Assembly (NCBI GenBank): GCA_964449245.1
Contig: CAYUXY010000002.1
Span: 39,463-103,462, forward strand
Length of the DNA: 64,000 bases
From: an uncultured Candidatus Saccharibacteria bacterium
GTDB taxonomy: Bacteria > Patescibacteriota > Minisyncoccia > UBA6257 > GWB1-50-10
Reading direction: 5' to 3'
In this document: in pieces, positions 24,149 through 60,612 of the stretch
Position numbering within the stretch: the stretch's first letter is position 1
Layout: each line of letters begins with the position of its first letter
The notes under the pieces: generated by a model
The model's input: only the letters and a program-made list of their open reading frames with translations
Database searches by the model: none
Told to the model about the DNA's origin: nothing
Made by a program: the position numbers and the translations under genes

Positions 24149-24376
24149 AACATTAATGCAAATATACTAATGTATGCTAATTATACGAATAAAAATTGTA
24201 ACTGTCATTACTGATTTATAGTTATTTAATTTTGAATAAGTGAAAAGAGTGAGTATTTTCTTCTCTGTTTTGCCCTCTGCTCTTTTTACTTTCATCTTTC
24301 GTCTGTTGTTGTCCGTATTCTGTAAATTGTCAGTTCTGTTAATTTTATTTCCATCACTCGGTAATTAAATAATTTA

Positions 24377-24450
24377 TTCGAAATTCGAAATTAGGTAAAT
24401 CGAAATTTGCATTACTTTCTACTTTACAAACTTTATAGACTTTTAACTTT
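24377..24450. repeat. dispersed intergenic repeat module A (near-identical copy at 41120..41190)
   Basis: ttcgaaattcgaaattaggtaaatcgaaatttgcattactttctactttacaaactttatagacttttaacttt. Confidence 0.8.
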
Positions 24451-26239: not shown

Positions 26240-26407
26240 AAAAATTGAAAGTTAAAAAATCAAAATGGAAAATGGCGTAATATTAATTTCGATTGAATGG
26301 AAGAAGTATAAAGTTAAAAGACGAAGAACGGTCTGAATTCTATGCTATCCTCTCCTCTTTTATCTTTCTACTTTTCACTTTTGTCTTTCTGCCTTCTTCT
26401 CCGACAA

Positions 26408-28228: not shown

Positions 28229-28557
28229 AAGAAACTTTTTAGCTGCCCCAATTTCACCGGTGTTTAAAAAGATCCGGCAACTTTTTTTGGTACCGTGCTT
28301 GCGCACGGTATTACAAACCGCTGAAAGTTATCCGCCATTTGAAAATAGATTTCCAAATAAAAAGCGGATTGCTTTCGGCGATGTGTAATCGACTAAATTA
28401 ATTAATCCACGAACAGCTTCCGCTACCCGTGCCTTGTTACGACTTCGTCCGTGTCACCGAGCTTAGGCTGAACCCCTGTTGGAGTTTTCACCCACTCCCG
28501 GCTCCCCTGACGTGACGGGCGGTGAGTACAGGACTCGAGAACGTATTCACCGCGGCG

Positions 28558-28593
<36 letters not shown>

Positions 28594-28835
28594 AGGGCGA
28601 GTTGCAGCCCTCAATCCGAACTGGGGCGGTTTTTGATGGGATTAGCTCCGTCTTACGACTTGGCAACCCATTGTTTCCGCCATTGTAGCATGTGTGTAGC
28701 CCAGGGCGTCAAAGGGCCATGCTGATTTGACGTCGTCCTCGCCTTCCTCCGTCTATAAGACGGCAGTATCCCGTGACACATATAACACGGGAGAAGGGTT
28801 GCGCTCGTTACCCCACTTAAGGGAACACCTCACGG

Positions 28836-28866
<31 letters not shown>

Positions 28867-29121
28867 CCCGCCGTCCTTGCGGACAACAATCCTTTCGGAC
28901 TGTCTTCGTCGGGATTTCAAGCCCTGGTGAGGTGTCTCGTTTACCATCGAATTAAACCACATGCCCCACCGCTTGTGCGAGTCCCCGTCTATTCCTTTGA
29001 GTTTTAAGCTTGCGCTCGTACTTCCCAGGCGGCAGATTTAACGCGTTAGCTACGCCACCCCGAGGGTCGATACTCGAGACAGCTAATCTGCATCGTTTAG
29101 GGCGTGGACTACAAGGGTATC

Positions 29122-29765
29122 TACAATTTTGTTACTGCATAACAAAATTGCAATTTCTAATTTTGAATTTCGAAACTAATCGAAATAAAAATCTAATAAT
29201 TGCAAGCTCTGTTATGGGATGAAATATTTCTATTCATCTCTCTATGTCGCCATAGAGTTCGGCCTATATCTTCTCATCATAATGACGAGTCTGGCGTATA
29301 GTCTCTGAGGCTCCAAATTTACTATAGAAAATTATTCTTGAATCATTGTATAGACGATTCGAAGAATTTCTCAATTTTGATCTCATCGATTGCTTATCAT
29401 TGCTTCTATACAAGATCATTGCTTGATCGATTGATCAATTTTCCTATCAACATAATAAAATTGTTGCCTGCTGATTGTCTGCACCGAAAAGATTTTCACT
29501 CAACAATGAGTACTCTCGGATTCTCAGATTTTCCAGCATATAGCCAGATTATCCCCCGGACGACTTTCCGGAGGGGACTAATGCTCAATGGTACCCTTCC
29601 ACTCCGCGTATTCTTCAATACGCGAGACAATACATTTTTCAAGAAGCTCTCGGAAGTGAAAAAGATTGGTCTTTTGTAAAACAAAAGTTTTTCACTGAGA
29701 GTGCAAACCCGATTTTCCGCTGGAGAAAATCGAGGTTGGTTCTTGAAAATGAATTATCGAGCAAG
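29122..29765 (-). other. ~640-nt intervening sequence inside 16S (between GGATTAGA and GATACCC), ORF-less and highly structured
   Basis: Conserved 16S sequence is contiguous once this block is removed. No homing-endonuclease ORF. Multiple local hairpins. Boundaries are ambiguous by 2 nt. Confidence 0.7.
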
Positions 29766-30335
29766 TCTAATCCTTTTTGCTCCCCACGCTTTCGCGCCTC
29801 AGGGTCAGGAACGTCCCAGCAGAATGCCTTCGCCTTTGGTGTTCCGCACGATATCAACGGATTCCACCCCTACACCGTGCGTTCCATCTGCCTCTAACGC
29901 CCTCTAGTATGATAGTTTCCACGGCAGTTTCGGAGTTGAGCCCCGAGATTTAACCGCAGACTTATCATGCCCCCTACGCGCCCTTTACGCCCAATAAATC
30001 CGGATAACGCTTGTGGCCTTCGTATTACCGCGGCTGCTGGCACGAAGTTTGCAGCCACTTATTCCCGCCGTACTATCAGTCTTGCGACTTTCTCCGGCGG
30101 AAAAGTAGTTTACACACCTAAATGCTTCATCCTACACGCGGCGTCGCTCCATCAGGCTTTCGCCCATTGTGGAATATTCTCGACTGCTGCCTCCCGTAGG
30201 AGTAGGAACCGTATCTCAGTTTCCTCGCTGGGGAACAGGCTCTCACCTCCCCTACCGGTCGTAGTCTTGGTAGGCCATTACCCTACCAACTAACTGATCG
30301 GACCTAAGCCACTCCCAAAGCAACTTGCGTCTTTA

Positions 30336-30432
30336 CCCATCTCCAGTTCACTGAAAACAATTTCCTAAATACAAAGTTTGTAATATTAACATTCTTTGTT
30401 CAAAAAAATGTACTCAGTGAACTGGGGATGGG
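30336..30432 (-). repeat. 97-nt structured hairpin element in 16S V2 helix (copy A)
   Basis: cccatctccagttcactg ... cagtgaactggggatggg. Identical to copy B except for one compensatory base pair. Confidence 0.85.
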
Positions 30433-30515
30433 ACCATCGGGAATTAGTTCGCCTTTCGGCGAATTATGCCCGACTCTGGGGTATGTACTAAGGTGTTACT
30501 AGCTCGTTCGCCACT

Positions 30516-30612
30516 CCCAGCTCCAGTTCACTGAAAACAATTTCCTAAATACAAAGTTTGTAATATTAACATTCTTTGTTCAAAAAAATGTACTCAGTGA
30601 ACTGGGGCTGGG
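30516..30612 (-). repeat. 97-nt structured hairpin element in 16S V1 helix (copy B)
   Basis: cccagctccagttcactg ... cagtgaactggggctggg. Identical interior to copy A. Confidence 0.85.
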
Positions 30613-30764
30613 CGTTCGACTTGCATGCCTTATCCACGCCGCCAGCGTTCATCCTGGACCAGGATCAAATCCTCAAAAAAACAAATTGGGACAACTAAAA
30701 AATTTCTTTATTTTTTCGCTGTTTTAACTATTAAATTGACAAAAAACTTTCCTTTTTCACAGCA

Positions 30765-33424: not shown

Positions 33425-33467
33425 AAGCTCTCGTGAACGTGTTTCGTTTACGAGAGCTATTTTTTTA
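33425..33467 (+). terminator. rho-independent terminator
   Basis: agctctcgtgaacg-(loop)-cgtttacgagagct followed by TTTTTTT. Confidence 0.65.
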
Positions 33468-33786
33468 CAGACGACCGAAGCGGGGCGAAAATCCGCGTCC
33501 CTCGCCGGAAAACAGACGCCATTCCATAACTACTGGTATCGATTTCCCATTGCAAAGCTCCTCCAATCCACCTCAGCAATACGACAATTATATCTCCGTC
33601 TGTGTTAACGAAGAATACATTGTCTCTTTTTAAGAACTGCATTCTTTTTTTAATAAATGCAGCTATAACTGCGAAATTATCAAAGACTTTATCCTGCGAG
33701 AAAAAATCTCTGGCAATTTCACTCTTTTGAAGAATAAAGAAAATGAACCCCTCTTCTTCTTCAAAAAGCTCCAATTGCTTTCCCAT
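33457..33786 (-). CDS. hypothetical protein
   Basis: 109-aa ORF preceded by a perfect SD AAAGGAGGTGA 8 nt before the ATG. No recognised domain. The 3' end overlaps the convergent terminator. Confidence 0.45.
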   Translation of the reverse strand: MGKQLELFEEEEGFIFFILQKSEIARDFFSQDKVFDNFAVIAAFIKKRMQFLKRDNVFFVNTDGDIIVVLLRWIGGALQWEIDTSSYGMASVFRRGTRIFAPLRSSVKK

Positions 33787-33828
33787 CTTTCATTCACCTC
33801 CTTTCAAGGTTATCTGTTGGTTATTATA

Positions 33829-33862
33829 CAATAAAAAACCGCGATGGTCAATCGCGGTTTTA
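33829..33862 (-). terminator. rho-independent terminator after prfA
   Basis: aaccgcgat-ggtcaa-atcgcggtt followed by a U-run on the minus strand. Confidence 0.55.
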
Positions 33863-34597
33863 TTTCATTTCTCTCGCAGTCTTAATTATCTTATCCATAT
33901 CCCCCTCTAAGGTCTTCTCCACCCCGTAGAATTTTTTGCCCATTCTGTGATCGGTTATCCTGTCTTCGGGGAAATTATACGTCCTTATCTTTTCCGAACG
34001 GTCTGCGGAGCCTATCTGCTCTTTTCGTATCTGGTCAACGGACCCGACAGCTTGCTCTCGAGTTATCTCAAAAAGTTTTGCTCGGAGTATTTCCATAGCC
34101 TTTTCCCTGTTTGCGTGCTGTGTCCTTTCCTCTCGCGAAGAAATGACTATTCCTGTGGGCTTATGGGTAATCCGCACGGCAGTTTCAACTTTATTTACAT
34201 TTTGCCCTCCGGGACCGCCTGAACGGCAAAAAGTTATTTCCAAATCGCTTTCTTTTATATCAACCTCCTTTGCTTCCACGATAGGCAAAATGGCAACGGA
34301 CGCCGTTGATGTGTGAATCCTTCCCTGACGTTCCGTAACAGGCACGCGCTGAACGCGGTGAACTCCTGATTCCTGTTTCATATCGTTATATACCCCCTCG
34401 CCTTTTATTTCTGCGACAAAGGTTTTATACCCCTGCGCGCCGGATTCGGACGCGTCAACTATACCAAATCCCCATCCGCGCTTTACGGCATATCTCTGAT
34501 ACATTCTCGCCAAATCTCCGGCAAAAATCGACGCCTCATCTCCACCCGCCCCGGCTCTGATTTCAACAATAATCTTTTTTATATTTTCAACATTCAT
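33860..34597 (-). CDS. prfA: peptide chain release factor 1-type protein lacking N-terminal domain 1
   Basis: 245 aa. PVT codon-recognition tripeptide ([14 protein letters not shown]) and GGQ motif ([11 protein letters not shown]). Begins directly at the [10 protein letters not shown] region. Confidence 0.8.
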
Positions 34598-34843
34598 AAT
34601 ATTTTATTCCATTTTTTTACACACCGGGGCGAGGCTCGCCGAATTGTTTGCTGTAAGCTGGAGGCGGCCCGCCCCGGCCCTGATTTCAACAATAATCTTT
34701 TTTATATTTTCAACATTCATAATATTTTATTCCATTTTTTTACACACCGGGGCGAGGCTCGCCGAATTGTTTGCTGTAAGCTGGAGGCGGCCCGCCCCGG
34801 CCCTGATTTCAACAATAATCTTTTTTATATTATTCGTATCCAT
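34553..34843. repeat. 123-bp tandem direct repeat (about 2.4 copies) duplicating the prfA start region
   Basis: ATGs at 34597, 34720 and 34843 on the minus strand. Each upstream copy encodes [38 protein letters not shown] then a stop. Confidence 0.85.
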
Positions 34844-34910
34844 ATGATTTATAAATCAATAACACTGATGCTGACGTTCACAAGTACAAAAATTATTATC
34901 CAAAAATCCG

Positions 34911-38608: not shown

Positions 38609-38788
38609 ATTTCTTCTTGAAATATTGTTGTATCCTGTTAATCGTTATTTCTTCTTTTAACTTTTTACTTTTCTCTTTCGTCTTGTTATTTCTCTCATCC
38701 TGTCAAAAGTCTCTTTTTGTTAATCGTTAATCCTATTAATCGTCATTTGTTCTTTTATCTTTTAACTTCTTTCATTCGATTATTAATT

Positions 38789-38868
38789 CATTCAATCGAA
38801 ATTCGAAATTAGATAAATCGAAATTTACCGTATTTTTTTCTACATACTATATACAATATTCTATATAC
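38789..38868. repeat. intergenic repeat module A plus motif B (actatatacaatattctatatac) overlapping the NUDIX stop codon
   Basis: cattcaatcgaaattcgaaattagataaatcgaaattt ... ctacatactatatacaatattctatatac. Confidence 0.75.
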
Positions 38869-39331: not shown

Positions 39332-39422
39332 ATTAGTATTTCGTATTTTTGTCTTTCTTCTTTTCTCTTTTAACTTACGTATTTAGAAATTTGCATTTTT
39401 ACTTTAAACTTTCATCTTTTCT

Positions 39423-39451: not shown

Positions 39452-39558
39452 ACTTTATATTTCTCCCATTCAATCATTAATACATTCAATCGAAATTCGA
39501 AATTAAGTAATTAGAAATTATTTCTCCTGCATACTATATACAACATTCTATATACCAT

Positions 39559-41002: not shown

Positions 41003-41119
41003 ATTAGTATTTCGTATTTTTGTCTTTTGTATATTGTTTTATTATTTTGTTAACAGTCGATTGTTGTTAATCGTCATCCTGTTAATAGTTATTTAACTTC
41101 CTTCATTTAATCATTAACT

Positions 41120-41190
41120 CATTCAATCGAAATTCGAAATTAGGTAAATCGAAATTTGCATTACTTTCTACTTTATAAACTTTTAACTTT
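41120..41190. repeat. dispersed intergenic repeat module A (copy)
   Basis: cattcaatcgaaattcgaaattaggtaaatcgaaatttgcattactttctactttataaacttttaacttt. Confidence 0.8.
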
Positions 41191-44940: not shown

Positions 44941-45164
44941 TTGGAGGGATTCCTTGCATTTCTCCGCTTCGGTAAACCGCATTGGAGACAAGAAATCTAC
45001 ACCCAACTCAACGAAAGCACTATATCATAGAAAAATTCAAAAAGCAAGAGCAAAAACAGTTATTAGTTTTTAGTTGTTGGTTTTTAGTTATAATGTATTT
45101 TCTAAAAACTAATTACTTTTAACTTCCTTTCCCCGTCTTTTTACTTTCATCTTTTAACTTTCGA

Positions 45165-47473: not shown

Positions 47474-48917
47474 AAAAAATGATTAACGCTGTGTAATATA
47501 ATAGCACGGCTGGAGTGGAAAAATTCAGGGACACGCCTCCGCTAATTTTACCAAAAAATTCTATGATTCCTATTTCGCATTGTAACAAGAATCCGAGCAC
47601 TACTCCGGAGATAATCGAAAGAAAAGGCAGTGAAAGCTCCACAAAAACAGAGACAAACCCGAGAGCCATTGTAAACGGCGTAAGGGATAAAAGAACTATA
47701 TTTGCCGGCAAGGACGCAAGAGAGACAAAGCCAAATTTGGAAAGCAAAATTGGCAAAACCGTTATTTGCGCGGAAACGGTAGTTAACAGATTTTCTTTCC
47801 ACGAGAATATTCCTTTGTCTCCGTTTGTGTTCAAAAAAAGTTCTATTTTGGGCTTCAAATAAACGATGCCGAGTAAAGCGAGGAACGAGAGTTGAAAGCC
47901 GATATCAAAAATCAAAATTCGGGGATTATATAAAGACATAATTAGCGCCGAGAGCAAAATAACATTTTTCATACTTTCCCCGCTTCCAAATAGGCGCCCG
48001 AAAAGAATAGATGCCCCCATGATTCCTGCGCGGGCAACCGAAGGCTCCCCTCCCGTCATTATTGAAAATCCGGCTATCGAAAACAGCGATGCGAAAAACG
48101 AACCTCGCGGAGTCATAAAAAGCGTAAACAGTGATGCTACGGCAAGAATTAAAATTGTTATGTTGTATCCGGAAAGCGCGACGAGATGCGTAGTTCCACT
48201 CTTCTTCATAGCTTCATCAAATTCGGAAGAAAAATCGTTTGTATTGCCAAGCAATATACCCTTTAAAAAAGCTGCGGATTTATACGGCAAAATAGCATTA
48301 ATTGCGAGCTCGACTTTTCCTTTTATTTTAAATAGCGCGGATTTAATGAAAGAACCGTTATTATGAGAAATTAAAATAATTTCAGGAAACGATAAAATTC
48401 CATACATTCCTTCTTTTATTAAATAATTTCCATATCCGTTTTCGGGAATCTGTTTTATTTCTCCGGTAAATTCTACTTTGTCGCCATATTTGAAGACAGG
48501 AAATCTCGCGGTCTGAATAAGTATATTACCCCTATAAGGCTCTGATAATTTTACCGCAATCTCCTGCTTTTTTTCTGAAAACGCCGGCGATTTTGACACA
48601 ATACCTTGAATCGTAACGGCATCTGAAAATGGAATATTTATTTTACTATTCTGTATATCAAAAAATCCGGAATAAAACGCTCCGCAAAATATAAATGATG
48701 CCACGAATGGAAAAAACAAAAAGCCTTTCTTTTTGGAGAAAAAATAGCAAACGAGCGGAACTATAAATAAAACGAGTATGAACGGGAATGCCGTCACGCC
48801 GAAACCTAAGCTCGCAAGCGCAATTCCAATGAGCACTCCCGACGACCCCCAAAAGAATTTTTTATGCAGAGCATCAAGCGAATGCGCGAGAAAAAATGAC
48901 ATGAGCGAAAAATACAA
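47391..48917 (-). CDS. ComEC/Rec2 competence membrane-channel domain protein
   Basis: 508 aa polytopic membrane protein with a competence-domain-like core. Confidence 0.7.
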   Translation of the reverse strand: MYFSLMSFFLAHSLDALHKKFFWGSSGVLIGIALASLGFGVTAFPFILVLFIVPLVCYFFSKKKGFLFFPFVASFIFCGAFYSGFFDIQNSKINIPFSDAVTIQGIVSKSPAFSEKKQEIAVKLSEPYRGNILIQTARFPVFKYGDKVEFTGEIKQIPENGYGNYLIKEGMYGILSFPEIILISHNNGSFIKSALFKIKGKVELAINAILPYKSAAFLKGILLGNTNDFSSEFDEAMKKSGTTHLVALSGYNITILILAVASLFTLFMTPRGSFFASLFSIAGFSIMTGGEPSVARAGIMGASILFGRLFGSGESMKNVILLSALIMSLYNPRILIFDIGFQLSFLALLGIVYLKPKIELFLNTNGDKGIFSWKENLLTTVSAQITVLPILLSKFGFVSLASLPANIVLLSLTPFTMALGFVSVFVELSLPFLSIISGVVLGFLLQCEIGIIEFFGKISGGVSLNFSTPAVLLYYTALIIFYGIARTILRKKKTSEYFFLNNGNMPRV

Positions 48918-49034
48918 ATTTCGAATTACCTAATTTCGAATTTCGATTGAATGAATTAATGATAAAATTTCTGAATGCATTTGCTTGCACTAACAACTAA
49001 AAACTAATAACTACAAACTGCATTACGCCACTTT
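48915..49034. repeat. intergenic repeat modules A (reverse orientation) and E (ctaacaactaaaaactaataactacaaactgcattacgccactt)
   Basis: Module E recurs at 49713..49755, partially at 26405..26435, and in reverse complement at 45055..45090. Confidence 0.75.
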
Positions 49035-49054: not shown

Positions 49055-49558
49055 TTACATTCTATTTCCTAACTCCTTCCTTATCACTCTCATCAGTTTT
49101 GATTTATCTTCTCCGGCACAAACAACGCCTGCATTTTCGTATCCCATTTTTTCATAGAATGCGTATGCCGTATCCCTGTACCTTTCTGCGCTCCTTCCCA
49201 TTATTTCAGTAAATCCGAGATCCTTTGCTTTTTCTTCCACGAGACTAAGAAGAGTTCTGCCAATACCCTTACCGCGACAATCTTTTTCGAGATACAAAAT
49301 CTTTAATTCGCACGGCTTTTCCGTTTTGGCAAACTCAACAATTTTTGGCAATACATCGCAAATACCGGTAATTCCGACAATGATGTCGTTATCTACAGCA
49401 ACCCAATATTTAGCATTGAATTCAGTTTTATCTTTAATATATCCCCCTATTCTTTCAATATATTTTTTTACCTCACTTTCGTCAGTCCATTCGGATAATA
49501 TCTTTTCTATCGCCGGCAAATCTTCCTCTACGGGTTTTCTAATAATTATGTTCGACAT
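49055..49558 (-). CDS. GNAT family N-acetyltransferase
   Basis: Acetyl-CoA-binding motif RGKGIGRTLL. 167 aa. Confidence 0.85.
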   Translation of the reverse strand: MSNIIIRKPVEEDLPAIEKILSEWTDESEVKKYIERIGGYIKDKTEFNAKYWVAVDNDIIVGITGICDVLPKIVEFAKTEKPCELKILYLEKDCRGKGIGRTLLSLVEEKAKDLGFTEIMGRSAERYRDTAYAFYEKMGYENAGVVCAGEDKSKLMRVIRKELGNRM

Positions 49559-49746
49559 ATCTTAATATTAATTTAATAACTGAGTAAAAAGTTGAAAGTA
49601 CAAAAGATGAAAGTGAAAAAACTAAAGCACGAATGTGGGTATTTTTCTTTCTTTTCTTTTAACTTTAAACTTTTATCTTTTTACTTTTGTCTTTTATCTT
49701 TCTGCATTCTTCTCTAACAACTAAAAACTAAAATCTAAAAACTGCA

Positions 49747-51450
49747 TTACGCCACTTCCGCTTGATAACATTCTTTGCAATAAATAATCGGAGCATTTTT
49801 CTCTAAAAATGTAGTCCTAAACGAAACTCCACACTTGGAACATTCGCGCTCTATTGTTTTGCAATAATTGATATTTTCAATCCACCTGTTTACCTTTTTC
49901 ATAATCCTACACATAGGACACTCCCGCGGAAGAGGCAAGTTCATTCTTTTTAAAAACTGAAATTCCATACCTATTATGCGAAATCCATTACCGCAGGCGG
50001 AACATTTAATAACTTCGTTTAAGATTGATTCGTCCGCGTCTTTTATATTATCAGGCAATTCATCGAAATTTTTAGTTATCTCGTGCTCTTTTTGCGGTCT
50101 GTCTATCCACCGCAATCCTTCATTTTCCGACTGCTCTCTTGTCTTCGGAAAAAATAAACTCCCAAAAGAATCGTTGTATGGAACGTCGGATAATTCCATA
50201 GGGAAAAATTCGCCGTATTTATAAATATTTCCCTTTTTATCCGTATATGGCATTTCGTCCATATGTTTTATTATTTTTTCGCGAAGAGAATTGAATTCGT
50301 CCTCTGAATATCTTTTGTTCAATATGCAATACTCTCCTTTGTTTACCGATACGCAACCAAAATGATTTTTGCCTCCATTAGACAATCTCGAATATTCGGC
50401 ATCGGATTGACCTAATCCGCTTTCCCAGCAAAATTTTATTCCAGAAATGTTTTCTCCAACGTTTACGGAATCATAAGAACGGCTCATATTATTTCCCCAG
50501 CTTGAAATGTCGTATGATTCGCTTGACGGATTATCATTTACCAAAAACAAGAATTTTGAATCCTGCGAAAAACTCGTTTCGAAGCCTTCCATCACATTTT
50601 TCGAATTGAAAATATAATTTCCGGTTGAATTAACGCAAAATCTGTCATAAAGCCCTTTATACGGGTATTTTTTATTGTTTTCTTCGGCTTGTTTTTTAAC
50701 AGCTATATATTGAGAATATGAACCTAAATCAATTTCCGATAGCTTTCTAAAATATTCTTCTTTTGATAATTGTTCATTAAAGAAGACGTACTTTTTGTTT
50801 TTTATATTTGCAGAAGCAAAACAATTTTGGCACCCAACCGCATCGCGGGTAAACAGGCATTCCATAGATTCTGTAGTGTGATCAACGCCAATACATTTAT
50901 TGTCTTGAAAACTGTGTATTGAATCGAAACACAGCTCCGAATCTGAGGTTATGGAACAATCAAAAACCTCTTTATTGTCAAAATGGTGAAAGCCATAAGC
51001 GCAATTTTCATCCCTGTCGCTATGAAAAATAAGATACGAATTTTTCTGATTCCCTACGTGGTTCGTATATGGAGAGGTGGCAATGGACGCGATGTCTGTA
51101 GAAAGCGCGGACAAGGGAGCCTCGTGCAACAACTCATTAAATTGTTCGAAAAACGGGCGCGAAAAATCATAGTCTCTTCCGTAATCATACGGGCTCCAAT
51201 TATCGCTCCACCAACATTTTGCGCAATAAACTACGTATTTTGCGTCAGGCGGATATCGCGAAACAACACTTTTTTTGCATAAATCGCAGTCTCGTTTATA
51301 AAGACGAAATGTGTTTAAAAAAGCCAATCTCCGCTCTAATCTGCACATCGGGCAAAACGTCGGTGGAGGAACGTCAATCTTCTGATAAAAAGCTTCATCG
51401 TCAGGCGTGATTTCAAAATCTGTTTTACAATTTTGGCACGGCTTATTCAT
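49747..51450 (-). CDS. cysteine-rich protein with terminal zinc-ribbon-like modules and internal repeats (paralog 1), unknown function
   Basis: 567 aa. N-terminal CQNCKTDFEITPDDEAFYQKIDVPPPTFCPMCRLERRL. The C-terminus repeats this CxxC ... CPxCR module. Internal GCxxxxNKxYCIxNxxYSxEEY repeats. Confidence 0.7.
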   Translation of the reverse strand: MNKPCQNCKTDFEITPDDEAFYQKIDVPPPTFCPMCRLERRLAFLNTFRLYKRDCDLCKKSVVSRYPPDAKYVVYCAKCWWSDNWSPYDYGRDYDFSRPFFEQFNELLHEAPLSALSTDIASIATSPYTNHVGNQKNSYLIFHSDRDENCAYGFHHFDNKEVFDCSITSDSELCFDSIHSFQDNKCIGVDHTTESMECLFTRDAVGCQNCFASANIKNKKYVFFNEQLSKEEYFRKLSEIDLGSYSQYIAVKKQAEENNKKYPYKGLYDRFCVNSTGNYIFNSKNVMEGFETSFSQDSKFLFLVNDNPSSESYDISSWGNNMSRSYDSVNVGENISGIKFCWESGLGQSDAEYSRLSNGGKNHFGCVSVNKGEYCILNKRYSEDEFNSLREKIIKHMDEMPYTDKKGNIYKYGEFFPMELSDVPYNDSFGSLFFPKTREQSENEGLRWIDRPQKEHEITKNFDELPDNIKDADESILNEVIKCSACGNGFRIIGMEFQFLKRMNLPLPRECPMCRIMKKVNRWIENINYCKTIERECSKCGVSFRTTFLEKNAPIIYCKECYQAEVA

Positions 51451-51504
51451 AATTTCTAATTACTTAATTTCGAATTTCGATTGAATGAATCAATGATTGA
51501 ATGG
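51451..51504. repeat. repeat module A (reverse orientation) directly abutting the ATG of the Cys-rich gene
   Basis: aatttctaattacttaatttcgaatttcgattgaatgaatcaatgattgaatgg. A similar copy lies at 53321..53378. Confidence 0.75.
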
Positions 51505-51598
51505 AAAAAGTATAAAGTTGTAAGACAAAAGATGAAAGTAAGAATGCAACTATTTTTCTCTGTTTTTTTTCTTTTAACTTTAAACTTTCGTCTTTTGT

Positions 51599-53320
51599 CT
51601 AACTGATTTCATTTTGGTAACACTGTTCACAATATATGACTTCCGGTCTCTCTGGAGCGTAGGATGTCATTATTTCCGCACTACATTTTGCGCAATTACG
51701 TTTCCACAATTTAAGAGGATTCCTTTGCATCAAACGCGAAAAATAACGGCAATTAGAGCACTTTCTCGGAAGCGGGATATTCATTCTTCTGTAAAATTGG
51801 AGTTCCTGCGGGACGATTCTGAAAGCCTTTGTGCAATTGCATCGTTCTTTCATATTTGGATTATCTTTATCATCCCACGTTTCGCACTGTATTATTTCTT
51901 TCAAAATATCATCGGTTACTGTGGAAATTTCTTCCGGTAAATCTTCCCACGATTTAGTCGGAACATAATCCTTATCCTTAATTTCTTTCCAAACATATCC
52001 CCGCTTTAATGCTTCGTCTTTTGAAAGATAAAAATAGTCCTGCGCCGCGCTTATGTTATACGGCAAAAATGATGCTTCCGGTGGGAAAAACTCGCCGAAT
52101 TTATATGTTTTTCCAAAACTCAAAAACGGCATATCGTCCATATGTTTTCTTATTTCCGGCAATAATTTTTCATACTCTTCTTTTGAATACTGTTTGTTCA
52201 AAATGCAGTATTGTTTATTCTTAAGCCCCACACATCCGAAAAGATACGAGGACGAATAACAATTATCACAATACGTTAAATCGTGGCACGATTCCCACGA
52301 TTCGTTAACGAATCTGATATTTGAGAGATTATATCCGCAATTCGCGGTTTCATACACAAGCTCCGCATTTCTTCCCCAGTACGAATAATCCATACAATCT
52401 TTACCCTCAATAATGGACAACAAATTCTTTCCATGCTCAACATCTCGTAATTGATAGGAATTGGACACATCATTGCAATTTGTAAGCCAATTTCCCGAGG
52501 AATTCGTGCAATTTATAGCAACCGTTGATCTGCGCGGATAATTCATTGCAAATTTTTTAAAACGTGCGCGCATCTTTTCAACACCCATTGCCGTATTGAG
52601 ATGAAAATCACGCAGTTTTATTTCATAATCCTCTTTGGAATATTGTTCATTGAATATACAATATTGCTTATTTAAAAGACTGGCGCATCCGATACAATTC
52701 GAGCAATTTCTGCAATCAAATAGAAAAAATGAATCCCTGCACTGCCTGCATTCCTGCAGATATTTGGACCCATAGCATTCGAACGCGTCTATACTGCCAA
52801 ACACGAGTTCGGATTGATGAACATTGAAGCAATCCATACAATCTCTTGATTCCCAAAGATTGTACGAGTAGCTCGAATTTTCATTATAATTCGCCCTGAT
52901 TATGAGGTAGCAACCTTTGTTATAACTCGCGCGGTTGCAAAATTCATTTCCTGCCTGATCGCCCTGAATCGTTCTCTCCGCTCTCGGAACACGAGCCTTC
53001 AATTCCCTAAACTGCTGGAAAAACGGTTTTGAAAAATCATAATCTTTTCCATATGAAATCGGATCCCAATTGTCGCTTCTGTAGCAATCCAAACAATAAA
53101 CCGGATACTCTGAGCCGGTGTCGTGCGTAGAAATTATTTTCTTTCCGCAAAGTGAACAAGTATTGCCGTATAAATATCTCTCCGCGCAAAAAGAAAGCCT
53201 CCGCTCAAATCTGCACGTCGGGCAAAATGTCGGCGGAGGAACATCAATCTTCTGATAAAAAGACTCATCATCGGGAGTGATTTCAAAATCAGCATTACAG
53301 TTCTGACACAGCTTATTCAT
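51599..53320 (-). CDS. cysteine-rich protein, tandem paralog 2 of the 49747..51450 gene
   Basis: 573 aa. About 60% identical in the N-terminal 100 aa (MNKLCQNCNADFEITPDDESFYQKIDVPPPTFCPTCRFERRL). Same internal repeats. Confidence 0.7.
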   Translation of the reverse strand: MNKLCQNCNADFEITPDDESFYQKIDVPPPTFCPTCRFERRLSFCAERYLYGNTCSLCGKKIISTHDTGSEYPVYCLDCYRSDNWDPISYGKDYDFSKPFFQQFRELKARVPRAERTIQGDQAGNEFCNRASYNKGCYLIIRANYNENSSYSYNLWESRDCMDCFNVHQSELVFGSIDAFECYGSKYLQECRQCRDSFFLFDCRNCSNCIGCASLLNKQYCIFNEQYSKEDYEIKLRDFHLNTAMGVEKMRARFKKFAMNYPRRSTVAINCTNSSGNWLTNCNDVSNSYQLRDVEHGKNLLSIIEGKDCMDYSYWGRNAELVYETANCGYNLSNIRFVNESWESCHDLTYCDNCYSSSYLFGCVGLKNKQYCILNKQYSKEEYEKLLPEIRKHMDDMPFLSFGKTYKFGEFFPPEASFLPYNISAAQDYFYLSKDEALKRGYVWKEIKDKDYVPTKSWEDLPEEISTVTDDILKEIIQCETWDDKDNPNMKERCNCTKAFRIVPQELQFYRRMNIPLPRKCSNCRYFSRLMQRNPLKLWKRNCAKCSAEIMTSYAPERPEVIYCEQCYQNEIS

Positions 53321-53564
53321 AATTTCTAATTATCTAATTTTGAATTTCGATTGAATGTATCAATGATTGAATGTCTGAATGCATTCTTCTGTGCCTATAT
53401 ACTATATACGATATTCTATATACCTTCTTACCTATTCCCCTATCTCTTCTTCAACGAAACCTTGCGCCCCTCTTTCTTTCTGTGCTTCTTTTTGGCTATT
53501 TTTTGTGTTTTATTCATATTCGATTATATTTTGATAATATCACTCATTTACGGGTTTTTCCACT

Positions 53565-55741: not shown

Positions 55742-55834
55742 AGCCTCTCCAATTGTACCTTTCGCACCCTATTTTTGTCCAAAATACGGTGAAAATGCGA
55801 ATAAAGGCACACTTCTATATTATCATATTGCAGG

Positions 55835-55863
55835 TTGACAGAGAGAGAGTTTTGTAGTAGAAT
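55835..55863 (+). promoter_or_regulatory. consensus sigma70 promoter TTGACA-N17-TAGAAT (copy 1 of a duplicated 47-bp cassette)
   Basis: gttgacagagagagagttttgtagtagaataaaagatagaaaataatt. An AAGGAG SD follows 8 nt before the ATG at 55908. Confidence 0.6.
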
Positions 55864-55907
55864 AAAAGATAGAAAATAATTAAAAAATTCATAAAGGAGT
55901 GTGCGTC

Positions 55908-56276
55908 ATGAAAAAATATGCGTACTTAATATTAATCGCCGCCTCAGGGTGGTTGGCCTTTTATAAAGTTGTTTCGACATATTGGCCATATTCTGGTGGT
56001 GAACCGCAGTACAACTGGGTAATCATTGGCATTTTTATTGCAAATAAAATGCTCCCATTGTTAATAGTAATGACCTCTATTTTTGAGGTGGGTAAGCCCA
56101 GCATCGCTGGAATCTCATCGAGATTTTTCATAGCATACGTCTACACAATGTCATTGGGAATCCCAACAAAAGGAGCAATAATGTCATCCGTGGTGATCAC
56201 AATATTTAGCTTCTTAATAAGCTTTGTAATTGCAAAAAAACAAAGGGTATTTAAAAATATTAAGTGGCCAAATTAA
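55908..56276 (+). CDS. small integral membrane protein (hypothetical)
   Basis: About 122 aa with 4 TM helices and a strong SD. ATG chosen instead of the upstream GTG in the tracked ORF. Confidence 0.55.
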   Translation: MKKYAYLILIAASGWLAFYKVVSTYWPYSGGEPQYNWVIIGIFIANKMLPLLIVMTSIFEVGKPSIAGISSRFFIAYVYTMSLGIPTKGAIMSSVVITIFSFLISFVIAKKQRVFKNIKWPN

Positions 56277-56277
56277 A

Positions 56278-56331
56278 TTTTGCCCCATTCCGACTATCGG
56301 ACTTGGGGCAAATTGTTTTTTAAATATACCC
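56278..56331 (+). terminator. rho-independent terminator
   Basis: ttgcccca-(palindromic loop)-tggggcaa followed by ttgtttttt. Confidence 0.6.
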
Positions 56332-56478
56332 TCGCCATATTTTTTGCACCCATCTCCCCGTCTATTATCGGCTTAATCCATCTGTATTTCTCCTCTTTTG
56401 TTGATTTGGGCATAGTTTGCATATGTCCTTAGACTATCTCTAAAAGTGCAATATGTGTGTGGACATTACCCGAGGGAG

Positions 56479-56507
56479 TTGACAGAGAGAGCGTTTTGTA
56501 GTAGAAT
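56479..56507 (+). promoter_or_regulatory. consensus sigma70 promoter TTGACA-N17-TAGAAT (copy 2 of the duplicated cassette)
   Basis: gttgacagagagagcgttttgtagtagaataaaagatagaaaataatt. An AAGGAGG SD lies 7 nt before the ATG at 56571. Confidence 0.6.
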
Positions 56508-56570
56508 AAAAGATAGAAAATAATTGTAATTTTAATAATACATCTAATTAGTTAGAAAGGAGGAATTGTC

Positions 56571-57158
56571 ATGAAAAAAATGATAATTCTTTTGTTTTTG
56601 TGCCTTGTTTCAACATCGTCATTAATGAGCCAGATTATCCCTCATGGGTTCGTAAGAACGGGATACAATGAAATCGCCATGAATTTTTACGGCGATGGAA
56701 TTGTTCGAACTCCGCTCGTAACTATGGTAGGAGTTGAATCTCACGCCATAGCATTCGGGAAAATGGACTCTTCTATTGCTATCGCGGCAGCAGGAATATC
56801 AATTTACAAAAATGTCTTTCGGATAGACATGCTTGCGGGCGAAAATTGGGGTAATTCCCATTTAATAGGCGCGCGCGTGTGGATTGGTAGTGAAGGAATC
56901 GTAAATCTGATGGGTGAATATTTTCACAATACAAACCGTGAACTATCCTCCCTTGATTATTGGAGGTGTTCGATAACCGTCCCCGTCAGCTCTTGGGCTG
57001 AGATGGGAGGAGAAATATCCAAGGTTCCATTCTCTGATGACGTATTTCAGGAAAAAAACGAACTTCATGGGGTGATTAACATAATTCCCCCTATTCCAGT
57101 TTCCATCGGCGTAGCTATAGGACGAAAATCGAGAGTTGAAGCTGTTCTTTATTTCTAA
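56571..57158 (+). CDS. secreted protein with signal peptide and OMP-like C-terminal beta-strand ending in Phe (hypothetical)
   Basis: MKKMIILLFLCLVSTSSLMSQ signal. Alternating hydrophobic pattern. C-terminal ...RVEAVLYF. Confidence 0.55.
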   Translation: MKKMIILLFLCLVSTSSLMSQIIPHGFVRTGYNEIAMNFYGDGIVRTPLVTMVGVESHAIAFGKMDSSIAIAAAGISIYKNVFRIDMLAGENWGNSHLIGARVWIGSEGIVNLMGEYFHNTNRELSSLDYWRCSITVPVSSWAEMGGEISKVPFSDDVFQEKNELHGVINIIPPIPVSIGVAIGRKSRVEAVLYF

Positions 57159-57164
57159 CATACC

Positions 57165-57187
57165 TAAGCGGGCCCAAAGCCCGCTTA
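57165..57187. terminator. putative bidirectional terminator hairpin
   Basis: aagcgggc-ccaaa-gcccgctt between convergent genes. The U-tracts are weak. Confidence 0.35.
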
Positions 57188-57216: not shown

Positions 57217-59973
57217 CTATACCGCAGGGCCTATCGGTTTCGTAATGCCATTAAAAATCGGAGTTTTTGAAAACTCACCGTTTACAAATCTCGCGCGGAG
57301 TATTTCCCCTATCGTAGCATTTCCCGAAACTTCATTGGGAGACATATTTATAGATTTCATAAAGTTAACCGCCTTCACATCGGCATCTTTATTCCAAACT
57401 TCCCACATCTTGCTCGCTTTTGTGTTAAAGAATCTATCAACTCCTGCATCATCCATTTTTGTAATAGACTTCACTGAATCAATAAATTGCGTTTCGTTTG
57501 CATTAAACGTCTGTTCAAGTTCAAAAAAGTTAGTGTTCAGCCTTGCAAGAGTCTTTGCGTCCTCTGCCGAAAATTCACTCGCGGGTATATTTTTCAAATT
57601 TTCATATTGAACGACAACATCTCTTATTCCTTGACTATATAAAACATTTTCTTGCTCGGTAAGAGAAAGTGAGGAAAAACTTTTTGCATTGCGTTCCAAA
57701 TCATTCGCGGTCTTTTCAAAAAGAGTCATCATTTGCTCGTGTTCTAAAATCGGAGACGCCTCTACCGCGATTTCGGGTTCATTGTTCAAAATCGGAATAC
57801 TCGGATCGGATTGATGTCCATAAACCGTACCTGCCCGCACTTCTTCTATGTTATCCTTGCCGTCAATCACAAATTTATCGGAAACATCTTCGGAAGAATA
57901 ATCTTTAAGATTATACGTTGTTCCGTCTGTATCCACAGACTCGCTTGAGACGTCGGAAGATACGTCGTGCGTATATTCATAAGTTCTTTCAAGCGGAATG
58001 TTTCCTCCCGACGGTTTGCCGTCAATAAATTCGCGGACAGATACTTCGCCGTTTGAGTCGTGCGTAATTACATAAGCAGGGTTCCCCTCTTCGCCTTCCG
58101 GACCTAAATCGAGAACGCGAACTTCGGTTCCTTCCGCCGGATTTATATATTCATTATCTACGGCGATATTGTATGCTTCTTTTCCGGACCAAGCGTGCAC
58201 TGCGGACGCGTCCGACGGATCCCCCTCATACCCCCATTCCTTCGGATTCACCTCAAGCTGACGCTGAATCGCGTGCGTTATCCCTTCTCCCTTGCCAACC
58301 GTTGCGCGGTCAATCATTTCCGGAGTAATACTAATTTTTGGGCTCACTACTCCGGTATTCTCGAATGATAAATGTGGAGATACTGCAGCCTTCGGGTTCG
58401 GAATCAACACGTCCGAATCGTGAACCTTCATCGGGTCATAGGCATCAGCCGAGCTTTCAACATTTATTTTCGGAGTAATAAAAGGATGGCCTGCCGTATC
58501 GACAGTTGTCGAGTTCGGAGGAGCATAATCCTGCTTATACATTCCAGAATGTACTTCCGGAGTGTGGATTGGAGCGGACGGAAAATGAACGGAATCCGCC
58601 AAATTCATAACGCCCTTGGAAATAAGGTCTCCGCCATATACACCGACACGGCTTCCCAAAAGTCCGGCGAGTATCGTTCCAAGCGTCCTGTTTGCCTTAT
58701 ACCATTTTTCTTGTTTTTTGAGTTTAGAAAGATATTGCTCGCTTAAGGCGATATTTTTGTCGGCGACATCTTTCAAAATTTTATTTCTTTCAAATTCGGA
58801 AGTTGTATCTACCGCGTGTAAAAGATCATCCGATACATCTTCTATCGCCTTTGTTTCAGTTCTTTCCGTAAGCTTTTCTCTATCGTGCTTAAGCGCCTTC
58901 TCGGCAAGGGGTTGAAATATTTTTTTAGAAAGAAGATAACCAAACTCTCCGCCAACAAGAGCTCTTACTACTTTGATTCCCACAAACCCAGCGCCTCCTA
59001 CACCAAGCGCAACAACGCCGGGAAACGCGAGCGCCATTCCGCCTCCGATAATTGCGGCGGTAAGCGCAGTGCGAGTATTTCTATTCATTTTAAAATATCC
59101 GCCGACAAGCTTACTTTCCGCGAGAGCCTCGCCTGTTCGTTTGAAAAATCTGCCAATACGACCCCCCTTCGGATCAATAGCCTCTTCCATTTTTACCCTC
59201 TCGTCCTGCCAGCGCATCATTTCAGCATTTATAAGTTTCATCGAATCAACTTCGATTTTCTGAACTTTATTTTCAAAACCACTGTCTCTCCCTTCGGCTT
59301 CCGCCTTGCTTAATTCCGTTTTTGTATATGAAATTTTAAATTCACGGAGCTTGTCTCTGTATTTATCTTCTAAAACAGCTCTCTGCCCGCGTAACTCTAA
59401 TCGCGATTTATCATTTTCGAGCTTTGCTTCTGGAGATTTATCAGCATTATATTTCTCATCCGCGATTCTCATTTTTTCGGCAAGCAAACGCATTTCGTTT
59501 CTCGTCTCCGCAACTTTCGCCGCAGTCTCTATCTCGGACATTGAAAATGCCTTATTCCTTAACGCTGCTACTATATTTTCTTTTGTTGGATCTACTCCTT
59601 CAGGAAAACCGCTCGGAATTCTTTTTTGAGTCAAAAAAGAATCGGCAACAATATCAATTTCATCGCTACTCAAAACGCGCCCATGCAATTCGTCATAAAG
59701 TTTTTTGACTATTTCTCTATTTTCTTCTTTATTCGGATCTATTCCTTTACTTTTTGCAATAGCGAATGTGGCACCAAATACATCCCGTTTAGTTAACGTT
59801 CCGGATAGAATTGATGCGCATGCCTTTGAATTCGCAGCATCTAATTGATCCGGTTTGTGCTTACTTGCATCAAAACCCAAAAGAACTTCGGAAGCAAACC
59901 CGAGTTCCTTATCCGGCTCTTCGTGTGAATTTTCTTGTTCGGGCGATGCGCCTTTTTGATCAGGATTTTCCAT
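57217..59973 (-). CDS. large hypothetical protein (918 aa) with acidic N-terminal region, coiled coils and central Gly/Ala-rich TM hairpin
   Basis: Long uninterrupted ORF. TM segment ALTAAIIGGGMALAFPGVVALGVGGAGFVGI. No recognisable catalytic motif. Confidence 0.6.
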   Translation of the reverse strand: MENPDQKGASPEQENSHEEPDKELGFASEVLLGFDASKHKPDQLDAANSKACASILSGTLTKRDVFGATFAIAKSKGIDPNKEENREIVKKLYDELHGRVLSSDEIDIVADSFLTQKRIPSGFPEGVDPTKENIVAALRNKAFSMSEIETAAKVAETRNEMRLLAEKMRIADEKYNADKSPEAKLENDKSRLELRGQRAVLEDKYRDKLREFKISYTKTELSKAEAEGRDSGFENKVQKIEVDSMKLINAEMMRWQDERVKMEEAIDPKGGRIGRFFKRTGEALAESKLVGGYFKMNRNTRTALTAAIIGGGMALAFPGVVALGVGGAGFVGIKVVRALVGGEFGYLLSKKIFQPLAEKALKHDREKLTERTETKAIEDVSDDLLHAVDTTSEFERNKILKDVADKNIALSEQYLSKLKKQEKWYKANRTLGTILAGLLGSRVGVYGGDLISKGVMNLADSVHFPSAPIHTPEVHSGMYKQDYAPPNSTTVDTAGHPFITPKINVESSADAYDPMKVHDSDVLIPNPKAAVSPHLSFENTGVVSPKISITPEMIDRATVGKGEGITHAIQRQLEVNPKEWGYEGDPSDASAVHAWSGKEAYNIAVDNEYINPAEGTEVRVLDLGPEGEEGNPAYVITHDSNGEVSVREFIDGKPSGGNIPLERTYEYTHDVSSDVSSESVDTDGTTYNLKDYSSEDVSDKFVIDGKDNIEEVRAGTVYGHQSDPSIPILNNEPEIAVEASPILEHEQMMTLFEKTANDLERNAKSFSSLSLTEQENVLYSQGIRDVVVQYENLKNIPASEFSAEDAKTLARLNTNFFELEQTFNANETQFIDSVKSITKMDDAGVDRFFNTKASKMWEVWNKDADVKAVNFMKSINMSPNEVSGNATIGEILRARFVNGEFSKTPIFNGITKPIGPAV

Positions 59974-60296: not shown

Positions 60297-60419
60297 TTTT
60301 TATAGTATTTAATTTATTGACCTTTATTATACCACATACCATATACCATCGTCAATGCAACATTATTTATTAAGTATAACACAAAAAAACACTGTGTTAA
60401 AAGACAAAAGATAAACTTG

Positions 60420-60600
60420 TTACTTTTAACTTTCTACTTTCGTCTTTTATCTTGTTTCTTTTGTCTTTTATCTTTTCACTTGTTACTTTTAACTTTTCTG
60501 CCTACGGCAGATCTCCCGTAGGGAGACGACTTTCTACTCTTTTGTTTTTCTTCTTTTATCTTGTTTCTTTTGTCTTTCTTTACTTTCAACTTTCTACTTT
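60420..60600. repeat. AAAG/CTTTT-rich degenerate heptad-like repeat array with internal direct repeats flanking the palindromic core (60499..60530)
   Basis: Plus strand reads cttttatcttgtttcttttgtctttt on both sides of ctgcctacggcagatctcccgtagggagac. The transcribed minus strand reads GAAAGTAGAAAGTTGAAAGTAAAGAAAGACAAAAG. Confidence 0.8.
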
Positions 60601-60612
60601 CAACTTCTTTTG

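Follow-up and report, generated by a model that had tools for sequence, protein, structure and literature searches.

A promoter in two copies before two unrelated genes of a Patescibacteriota contig: a probable case of promoter propagation

How do two neighbouring genes that resemble each other in nothing but their start come to stand behind what is, to within a single base, the same promoter? This question is raised by a locus on contig CAYUXY010000002.1 (assembly GCA_964449245.1) of an uncultured Candidatus Saccharibacteria bacterium, of which we analysed positions 39,463 to 103,462. This whole stretch of 64,000 nucleotides is referred to as the window and all coordinates are those of the window. 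The genes in question, P1 (55908-56276) and P2 (56571-57158), both lie on the plus strand. An earlier note made from the letters of the sequence had given these open reading frames (ORFs) with the same coordinates, and they (122 and 195 aa) are as it described. It saw in the product of P2 the look of an outer-membrane beta-barrel and suggested that the pair may be horizontally acquired, a highly expressed surface module or a sign of a chimeric contig.

The explanation which we think reasonably probable is that of two single-gene units with the same promoter, one of them (P2) inherited and the other (P1) wired in by promoter propagation, and with no outer-membrane barrel involved. According to this explanation, two separate monocistronic units would be fired by the same strong sigma-70-type promoter. 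The P2 unit would have been passed on vertically in a Jorgensenbacteria-like lineage of Parcubacteria within the candidate phyla radiation (CPR), and a copy of the promoter core (about -36 to +12) would have been placed 644 bp upstream, in this lineage only, so as to drive P1. The outcome would be promoter propagation in the form of a two-member family of 'putative mobile promoters', and the new gene P1 would be expressed like P2, presumably at a high and constitutive level. Among the three options of the earlier note, it is the highly expressed surface module that survives, with its expression as well as its surface location presumed from sequence features. If so, the locus would show, in a clean and datable form though with modest significance, how a propagated promoter can bring high expression to an orphan gene of a streamlined CPR genome.

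One promoter, two units and an inherited copy

The two copies of the promoter cassette lie on the plus strand at 55834-55881 (copy 1) and 56478-56525 (copy 2), 644 bases apart, and agree at 47 of 48 positions, the lone mismatch being A at 55848 versus C at 56492. Hence the duplication reported by the earlier note is there, although the cassette is not an identical one of 47 bp but measures 48 nt (including the N) with one mismatch. Weaker similarity extends the 48-nt core (98%) to a direct repeat of 61 nt at 90% identity (55834-55894 and 56478-56538). When up to three mismatches are allowed, the window holds exactly two matches to the cassette and 100 dinucleotide-preserving shuffles hold none; a scan of genome contigs for the exact cassette pattern gave no match. 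Both copies read TTGACA-17-TAGAAT, which is 11 of 12 positions of TTGACA-17-TATAAT and the joint best promoter score in the window, with the -35 hexamers at 55835-55840 and 56479-56484, the -10 hexamers at 55858-55863 and 56502-56507, and a hexamer distance (17 nt) inside the range of 16-18 nt tested for sigma-70-type promoters. This bears out the previous claim of a duplicated consensus promoter before two plus-strand genes, as a complete sigma-70-type promoter is present in both copies. Since the repeat starts 1 nt 5' of the -35 hexamer and ends 18 nt 3' of the -10 hexamer, it spans about -36 to +12 of the promoter. As for the mismatch itself, it falls inside the (AG)n run of the spacer (55841-55857 versus 56485-56501): copy 1 has (AG)5 there and copy 2 has (AG)4 and then CG. 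Slippage in this run would alter the spacer length.

Beyond the cassette and a 12-nt start context, phmmer and blastn detect no DNA or protein similarity between the P1 and P2 units; their coding sequences have nothing in common other than ATGAAAAAA, and the upstream flanks of the two copies show no alignable similarity. This is the situation described for putative mobile promoters by Matus-Garcia, Nijveen & van Passel (2012), who reported more than 4000 families of stretches of at least 50 nt and at least 80% identity upstream of non-homologous genes (PMC3488235), 68% of them two-member families, and among which identical pairs were most frequent (PMC3488235). By its sequence the P1/P2 pair has all three properties (61 nt at 90%, non-homologous coding sequences and non-aligning flanks) and so resembles these families in its similar stretch upstream of two non-homologous genes with unrelated surroundings. 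It differs from them in that the copies are tandem neighbours 644 bp apart, in that the ancestral copy can be identified through an orthologous promoter (see below) and in that the host has a reduced CPR genome outside the 2012 survey.

The two units are built alike: each runs from the promoter through an A/U-rich leader (about 38 nt for P1 and 57 nt for P2) to an AAGGAG(G) box, the start context GTC-ATG-AAA-AAA, a small ORF and a hairpin. Their start contexts, AAAGGAG-N5-GTCATGAAAAAA, are identical at 19 of 24 positions. The box of P1 (AAGGAG, 55894-55899, plus strand) lies 8 nt and that of P2 (AAGGAGG, 56557-56563, plus strand) 7 nt 5' of the ATG, both within the 5-10 nt considered for boxes of the Shine-Dalgarno (SD) type. 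P1 ends in an intrinsic terminator (56279-56322, plus strand) which begins 3 nt after the stop codon, is the strongest of the region and consists of a hairpin (56279-56312; -21.2 kcal/mol, z -4.8) followed by the T-run UUGUUUUUU. A GC-rich hairpin at 57165-57187 (-15.9 kcal/mol, z -5.3), with no U-run on either strand, sits between P2 and a convergent 918-aa gene and is likely their shared terminator. A hairpin that takes in the AUG, with the AAAAAA(A) from the Lys-Lys codons as its loop, can form in both mRNAs (55900-55925 and 56561-56590, plus strand; z about -2.4 and -2.5 versus shuffles).

P1 is a hydrophobic orphan of 122 aa (grand average of hydropathy, GRAVY, 0.72; pI 10) with basic N- and C-termini, probably a small polytopic membrane protein as judged from its composition. 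The four transmembrane segments previously assigned to it are half supported: those at 36-61 and 87-111 are strongly hydrophobic, but the other two (4-21 and 66-84) are weaker. A word-indexed search of 5.8 billion protein clusters returned only the query, no relatives turned up in viral contigs and the window contains no paralog. One weak match in PHROGs (E 4e-4), to a family of unknown function, covers a hydrophobic segment and was taken as compositional, not as homology.

What is it, then, that tells the resident copy from the new one? An exhaustive phmmer search of 1.84 billion representative proteins found exactly one relative of P2, a 200-aa protein (P0003; E 8.6e-10) annotated as a hypothetical protein of Candidatus Jorgensenbacteria RIFCSPHIGHO2_02_FULL_45_20 (Parcubacteria group), and pairwise BLASTP aligns the two with 37% identity over residues 24-124, about half the length (E 2e-16). 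The contigs with P0003 match the gene order of the window on both sides, with RmuC, a 118-aa gene, a metallo-beta-lactamase, ComEC, RecQ and Dus (minus strand) before the P2 homolog (plus strand), and a 793-aa protein, DUF5663, EF-G, S7 and S12 (minus strand) after it. Because P2 sits in the identical syntenic slot of this relative, it is an inherited, resident gene. Syntenic proteins are 84% (EF-G), 78% (RecQ), 78% (S7), 65% (DUF5663) and 57% (Dus) identical, and the large neighbour (918 versus 793 aa) 33%; set against flanking genes of 57-84% identity, the 37% of P2 over half its length means that P2 evolves fast. Between Dus and the P2 homolog, the Jorgensenbacteria loci carry no gene but just a spacer of 416 nt, in which there is no P1-like gene and no tblastn trace of one. 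As P1 has no relatives and is absent from this locus, P1 and the promoter copy upstream of it are a lineage-specific addition. The added unit of 644 bp comprises the cassette copy, the P1 leader, P1, its terminator and a 165-nt spacer. Also in this segment, between the P1 terminator and copy 2, is a minus-strand ORF of 42 aa (56294-56422; MQTMPKSTKEEKYRWIKPIIDGE...) without a family match, which may be a leftover of the segment's source.

The spacer of the relative does, on the other hand, contain a promoter. Directly 5' of P0003 is TTGACA-17-TAATAT, which aligns with the window cassette free of gaps and with 31 of 48 positions identical (21 of 36 outside the hexamers, binomial P = 5e-4). Conserved blocks are GTTTnGTnGTA in the spacer and AGATAGnAAA after the -10 hexamer. 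A degenerate pattern derived from this alignment matches exactly once per Jorgensenbacteria locus and has no match in viral contigs. The -35 hexamer stands 73 nt from the ATG in the P1 unit and 92 nt from it in the P2 unit, as compared with 91 nt in the relative, and the AAGGAG box is kept at the equivalent place of the Jorgensenbacteria ortholog. Thus, with a colinear conserved promoter, near-equal distances and a retained box, the P2-proximal copy together with its leader is orthologous to the promoter of the relative. Copy 2 would accordingly be ancestral and copy 1 the derived promoter that drives P1, the direction of duplication being read from this alignment.

Base composition speaks for native DNA. 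Tetranucleotide distances in 1.5-kb windows over the locus stay within 1.5 standard deviations of the window mean, as a check suggested by the earlier note confirms, and GC deviates little from the gene mean (P1 z -1.3, P2 z +0.4); the codon score of P2 (z -0.9) is likewise ordinary. Moreover, in the independent Logan assembly of SRR8925738 the contig that carries P2 (L001) starts at 56496, the position of the first 31-mer to include a base found only in copy 2, as the 33-mer block shared by the cassette copies is 56493-56525. Logan assemblies use k = 31. The start of this contig at the repeat border implies that, in the reads, the shared 33-mer continues in two different ways, as a true repeat would. 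Native composition, synteny and the Logan breakpoint taken together leave a foreign origin of P2 and a chimeric contig without support. For P2, therefore, the horizontal acquisition once proposed gives way to a syntenic Jorgensenbacteria ortholog behind a homologous promoter, and the proposed chimera to uniform GC, tetranucleotide and codon statistics and an assembly break at the repeat border.

The P2 family and the barrel question

P2 (195 aa) begins with MKK and a hydrophobic stretch, as expected of a signal peptide or anchor, continues with a beta-rich and rather aliphatic mature part of about 174 aa and ends in AVLYF. The signal-like N-terminus and the AVLYF end pointed out by the earlier note are both there. 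In the 5.8-billion-cluster word search P2 retrieved only itself, and a profile of P2 and P0003 found no further members among proteins; scans of genome and metagenome contigs with this profile led to the Jorgensenbacteria lineage only, including a variant copy with deletions (L011). Neither viral contigs nor the window (no paralog) hold another relative. Pfam, NCBIfam and PHROGs contain no significant family, the best at E <= 1 in Pfam and NCBIfam being noise (DUF7190 at 0.07, an acetyltransferase at 0.078), and the Protein Data Bank (PDB) has no sequence match. So far, then, the sampled family is apparently one of two lineages and fast-evolving.

AlphaFold models of P2 and P0003 reach a mean predicted local distance difference test (pLDDT) score of 36.6 and 40.3, too low for use, and mostly draw beta hairpins; a Foldseek search of the low-confidence P2 model against the PDB gave a best E of 0.95 with TM scores of at most 0.29. 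The sole part of P0003 modelled with confidence is a helix (3-29). Its N-terminal hydrophobic stretch is about 24 residues long, and P2 family proteins could therefore be cleaved or N-terminally anchored. Most likely, P2 would be a Sec-exported or N-terminally anchored, beta-rich, fast-evolving cell-surface protein of a single-membrane cell, with this location predicted from its N-terminus.

May P2 nevertheless be a small outer-membrane-type beta-barrel of 8-10 strands, which would imply an outer membrane or an equivalent in a CPR organism? We see this as very improbable. It is true that P2 resembles the small outer-membrane proteins (OmpX, the OmpA N-domain, OmpW) in a start that is signal-like, the size of its mature part (about 170 aa; some 174 aa in P2 itself), a predicted beta-rich make-up and a terminal phenylalanine. 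Furthermore, its strands alternate hydrophobic and small residues, both low-confidence models are mostly beta hairpins, and the two known family members end in an aromatic residue (...VEAVLYF in P2, ...VRGYMTF in P0003), albeit in only two sequences. But there is no outer-membrane protein family in Pfam or NCBIfam at E <= 1 and no PDB match by sequence or fold. The hydrophobic stretch of P0003 looks more like an anchor. The mature parts of P2 and P0003 (GRAVY +0.23 and +0.15; 34-37% ILVMF; 4-6% Y+W) contain much more aliphatic and less aromatic residue than OmpX and the OmpA transmembrane domain (GRAVY about -0.55; about 20% ILVMF; 10-12% Y+W), and they miss the pattern of negative GRAVY and richness in Gly and aromatics. 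No Bam, Lol, Lpt or lipopolysaccharide genes turned up among some 50 genes of the window, so that the Bam/Lol check proposed by the earlier note comes out empty for the window. The family is confined to a CPR lineage and CPR have been reported to lack the outer membrane, having lost it (PMC10160955). The barrel claimed for P2 thus finds no outer-membrane protein family, a composition unlike that of small outer-membrane proteins and no outer-membrane genes in the window. Of the two findings that the earlier note named as speaking against a barrel, homologs confined to related CPR genomes are what we obtained, whereas the models are too poor to provide any fold, barrel or other.

That P2/P0003 form a true membrane beta-barrel in this Parcubacteria lineage, with the terminal Phe as a sorting signal, is to our minds extremely improbable, yet it would be of consequence: CPR cells supposed to have a single membrane would then have retained or re-invented an outer layer, of lipid or bearing barrels, and barrels would be inserted without known BAM components. 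More soberly, surface or host-contact roles in Jorgensenbacteria may be considered for P2/P0003 and for the equally fast-evolving 793-918-aa neighbour. The event proposed next to this family, promoter propagation, is of a documented kind; the family that adjoins it is uncharacterised and lineage-restricted. The 918-aa gene itself (57217-59973, minus strand, convergent with P2) has no Pfam family, contains central hydrophobic segments, always lies beside the DUF5663 gene and likely encodes a fast-evolving envelope protein like P2.

Weighing the origin of the P1 unit

Several findings weigh against inheritance of P2 combined with promoter propagation to P1. Promoter activity and strength are predicted from the match to the consensus. 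Unlike what a random recent duplication predicts, the borders of the repeat match the functional promoter almost exactly; for the mechanism, an internal copy, a Campbell-type integration through the promoter and gene conversion are all candidates. With 0.106 per codon (z -2.4), the codon score of P1 is below all 39 confident genes (minimum 0.126) and falls within, albeit near the top of, the range of decoy ORFs (maximum 0.162). Such a low score fits a young, a foreign or merely a very hydrophobic gene. For P2, with models of low pLDDT (as above), the fold search gave no match at E <= 0.001. Finally, the AAGGAG(G) boxes are unable to pair with the 16S rRNA of this organism (see below), which leaves the translation part of the model incomplete.

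An unlikely alternative has the 644-bp P1 segment come from outside, for instance as transforming or circular DNA with a homologous promoter, in which one crossover would have inserted the segment and left the promoter duplicated on either side. This would explain the repeat-insert-repeat layout with its sharp borders, a P1 without homologs and with atypical codon usage (z -2.4), and it sits well with the ComEC competence genes nearby and with the 42-aa, relative-less minus-strand ORF inside the insert. GC and tetranucleotides are not deviant, however, and neither an integrase or transposase nor inverted repeats came to light; viral contigs contain nothing related and there is no known donor, and the hydrophobic amino-acid composition alone can depress the codon score of P1. 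The same score, together with the absence of homologs, is what a different reading makes use of, by which P1 is not a real gene at all and copy 1 an orphaned promoter duplicate before a chance ORF. Because the P1 score overlaps the decoys, the status of P1 as a gene rests on its layout of promoter, box, 122-codon ORF and terminator. That layout is full, since the promoter, an AAGGAG box and the very GTCATGAAAAAA context of P2 are all there, and the positive charges are distributed in a way that suits a membrane protein. We regard P1 as a real gene because the start context is complete and P2-identical, an ORF of 122 codons is improbable in DNA of 37% GC and the strongest terminator of the region begins 3 nt past the stop; a chance ORF is accordingly an improbable account.

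Could the repeat instead have been kept for what else it contains? The 48-nt block may also hold an operator or leader element (GTTTnGTnGTA and AGATAGnAAA), which would turn P1 and P2 into a small regulon under one regulator. In favour of this are the 21 of 36 non-hexamer positions conserved with the Jorgensenbacteria promoter (P = 5e-4) while the remaining intergenic region is unalignable, and the start-codon hairpins that both mRNAs can form (A6-7 loop, z about -2.5), which would hide the AUG. Yet the region shows no palindrome or known operator, no Rfam family and no adjacent regulator gene, the relative does not share the start-codon hairpin, and the conservation test is a weak one as it compares only two lineages; a shared regulator is unlikely, to about the same degree as an outside origin of the P1 segment. 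Far less credible, and indeed highly improbable, is a duplication that arose as an assembly artefact or in a chimeric contig. Repeats of more than 31 nt are classic points of misjoining and P1 is recorded from the NCBI contig only, not from the Logan assembly. Against this, the copies differ by one base and so do not represent a simple assembler loop, both flanks (Dus and the 918-aa gene) are syntenic with the relative, composition is uniform and the end of the Logan contig at the repeat border implies two successors of the shared 33-mer (with k = 31). On balance, promoter propagation from an inherited P2 unit remains the explanation that we favour.

AAGGAG(G) boxes, further repeats and neighbouring genes

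The AAGGAG(G) box was described before as a canonical SD that sets both genes apart from most others. Its rarity holds: of the 44 gene starts looked at, three show AAGGAG(G) at the distance of an SD, namely those of P1, P2 and a 109-aa ORF (33457-33786, minus strand); nearly all genes are without an SD and 35 of 44 have a T at position -1. The label 'canonical SD' is doubtful, for the 16S rRNA carries no CCUCC in its tail: its 3' end (28395-28410) reads GGAUUAAUUAAUUU as compared with GGAUCACCUCCUUU of the Rfam consensus, and no CCTCC follows downstream. Without CCUCC in the 16S, the boxes cannot act as classical SD sites. A motif complementary to the altered tail is not enriched either (10 of 44 genes versus 8.2 +/- 2.6 in shuffles). 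At the Jorgensenbacteria locus, the box occurs only at the P2 ortholog, and all three genes of the window with an SD-like box are orphan, stand-alone units.

Loss of the anti-SD has been published for a subgroup of Parcubacteria (Tsurumaki et al. 2022, PMC9297842). Our organism is like these in having a 16S tail devoid of CCUCC (here GGAUUAAUUAAUUU) and genes mostly without SD, and differs in a point on which that report is silent, the rare genes with a perfect AAGGAG(G), which are three orphans here and one of whose boxes is conserved across genomes. Conserved AAGGAG(G) boxes may act by a mechanism other than pairing with an anti-SD, and the question raised is why a few orphan genes retain a perfect AAGGAG(G) in an organism that has no anti-SD. 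The third of these, the 109-aa orphan (33457-33870, minus strand), looks cytoplasmic and combines a perfect AAGGAGG with a TTGACC-17-TATAAT promoter (extended -10); hairpins lie before and after this unit, which has its own terminator. As to the 16S gene (28395-30680, minus strand), it is 2286 nt long and interrupted by a group I intron at 29240-29629 (Rfam, 65 bits) and by two hairpin-like inserts of 97 nt (30336-30432 and 30516-30612) that are 98% identical and 180 nt apart.

Apart from the cassette, the window contains other repeated upstream modules, so that this genome seems to re-use intergenic modules commonly. An intergenic element of about 65-93 nt (CATTCAATCGAAATTCGAAATTAGGTAA...; CATTCAATCATTAATnCATTCAATCGAAATTCGAAATTAGGTAA...GAAATT) is present in at least seven copies and both orientations, four on the plus strand (24342-24434, 38760-38852, 39454-39546 and 41091-41183) and three on the minus strand (48917-48981, 51451-51515 and 53321-53385). 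In three cases a copy directly adjoins a start codon, namely that of ComEC or of one of two Cys-rich paralogs, and the element could be similar to a miniature inverted-repeat transposable element or a shared leader/promoter module. T-rich heptad arrays (CTTTTNN, or AAAAG heptads on the coding strand of minus-strand genes) recur intergenically upstream of promoters, at 26349-26382, 38646-38679, 39387-39420, 45129-45162, 49648-49702, 51563-51596 and 60415-60608. A tandem repeat of 123 nt (34545-34850; about 2.5 copies, 85-99% identical) lies over the 5' end of an RF2-like gene (33860-34597), in which the PCRF match starts only at profile position 100.

The window otherwise encodes housekeeping functions typical of a reduced genome, including F-ATPase, HisRS, SecA, ComEC, RmuC, four NUDIX proteins, type IV pilin-like proteins and a VirD4-like ATPase. 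On the minus strand at 49055-53320, a GNAT acetyltransferase is accompanied by the two Cys-rich (CxxC-repeat) paralogs just mentioned, which are in tandem, 567 and 573 aa long and 38% identical, and which have near-identical upstream sequences. This block lies between ComEC and RecQ, two genes that are adjacent in the Jorgensenbacteria relative.

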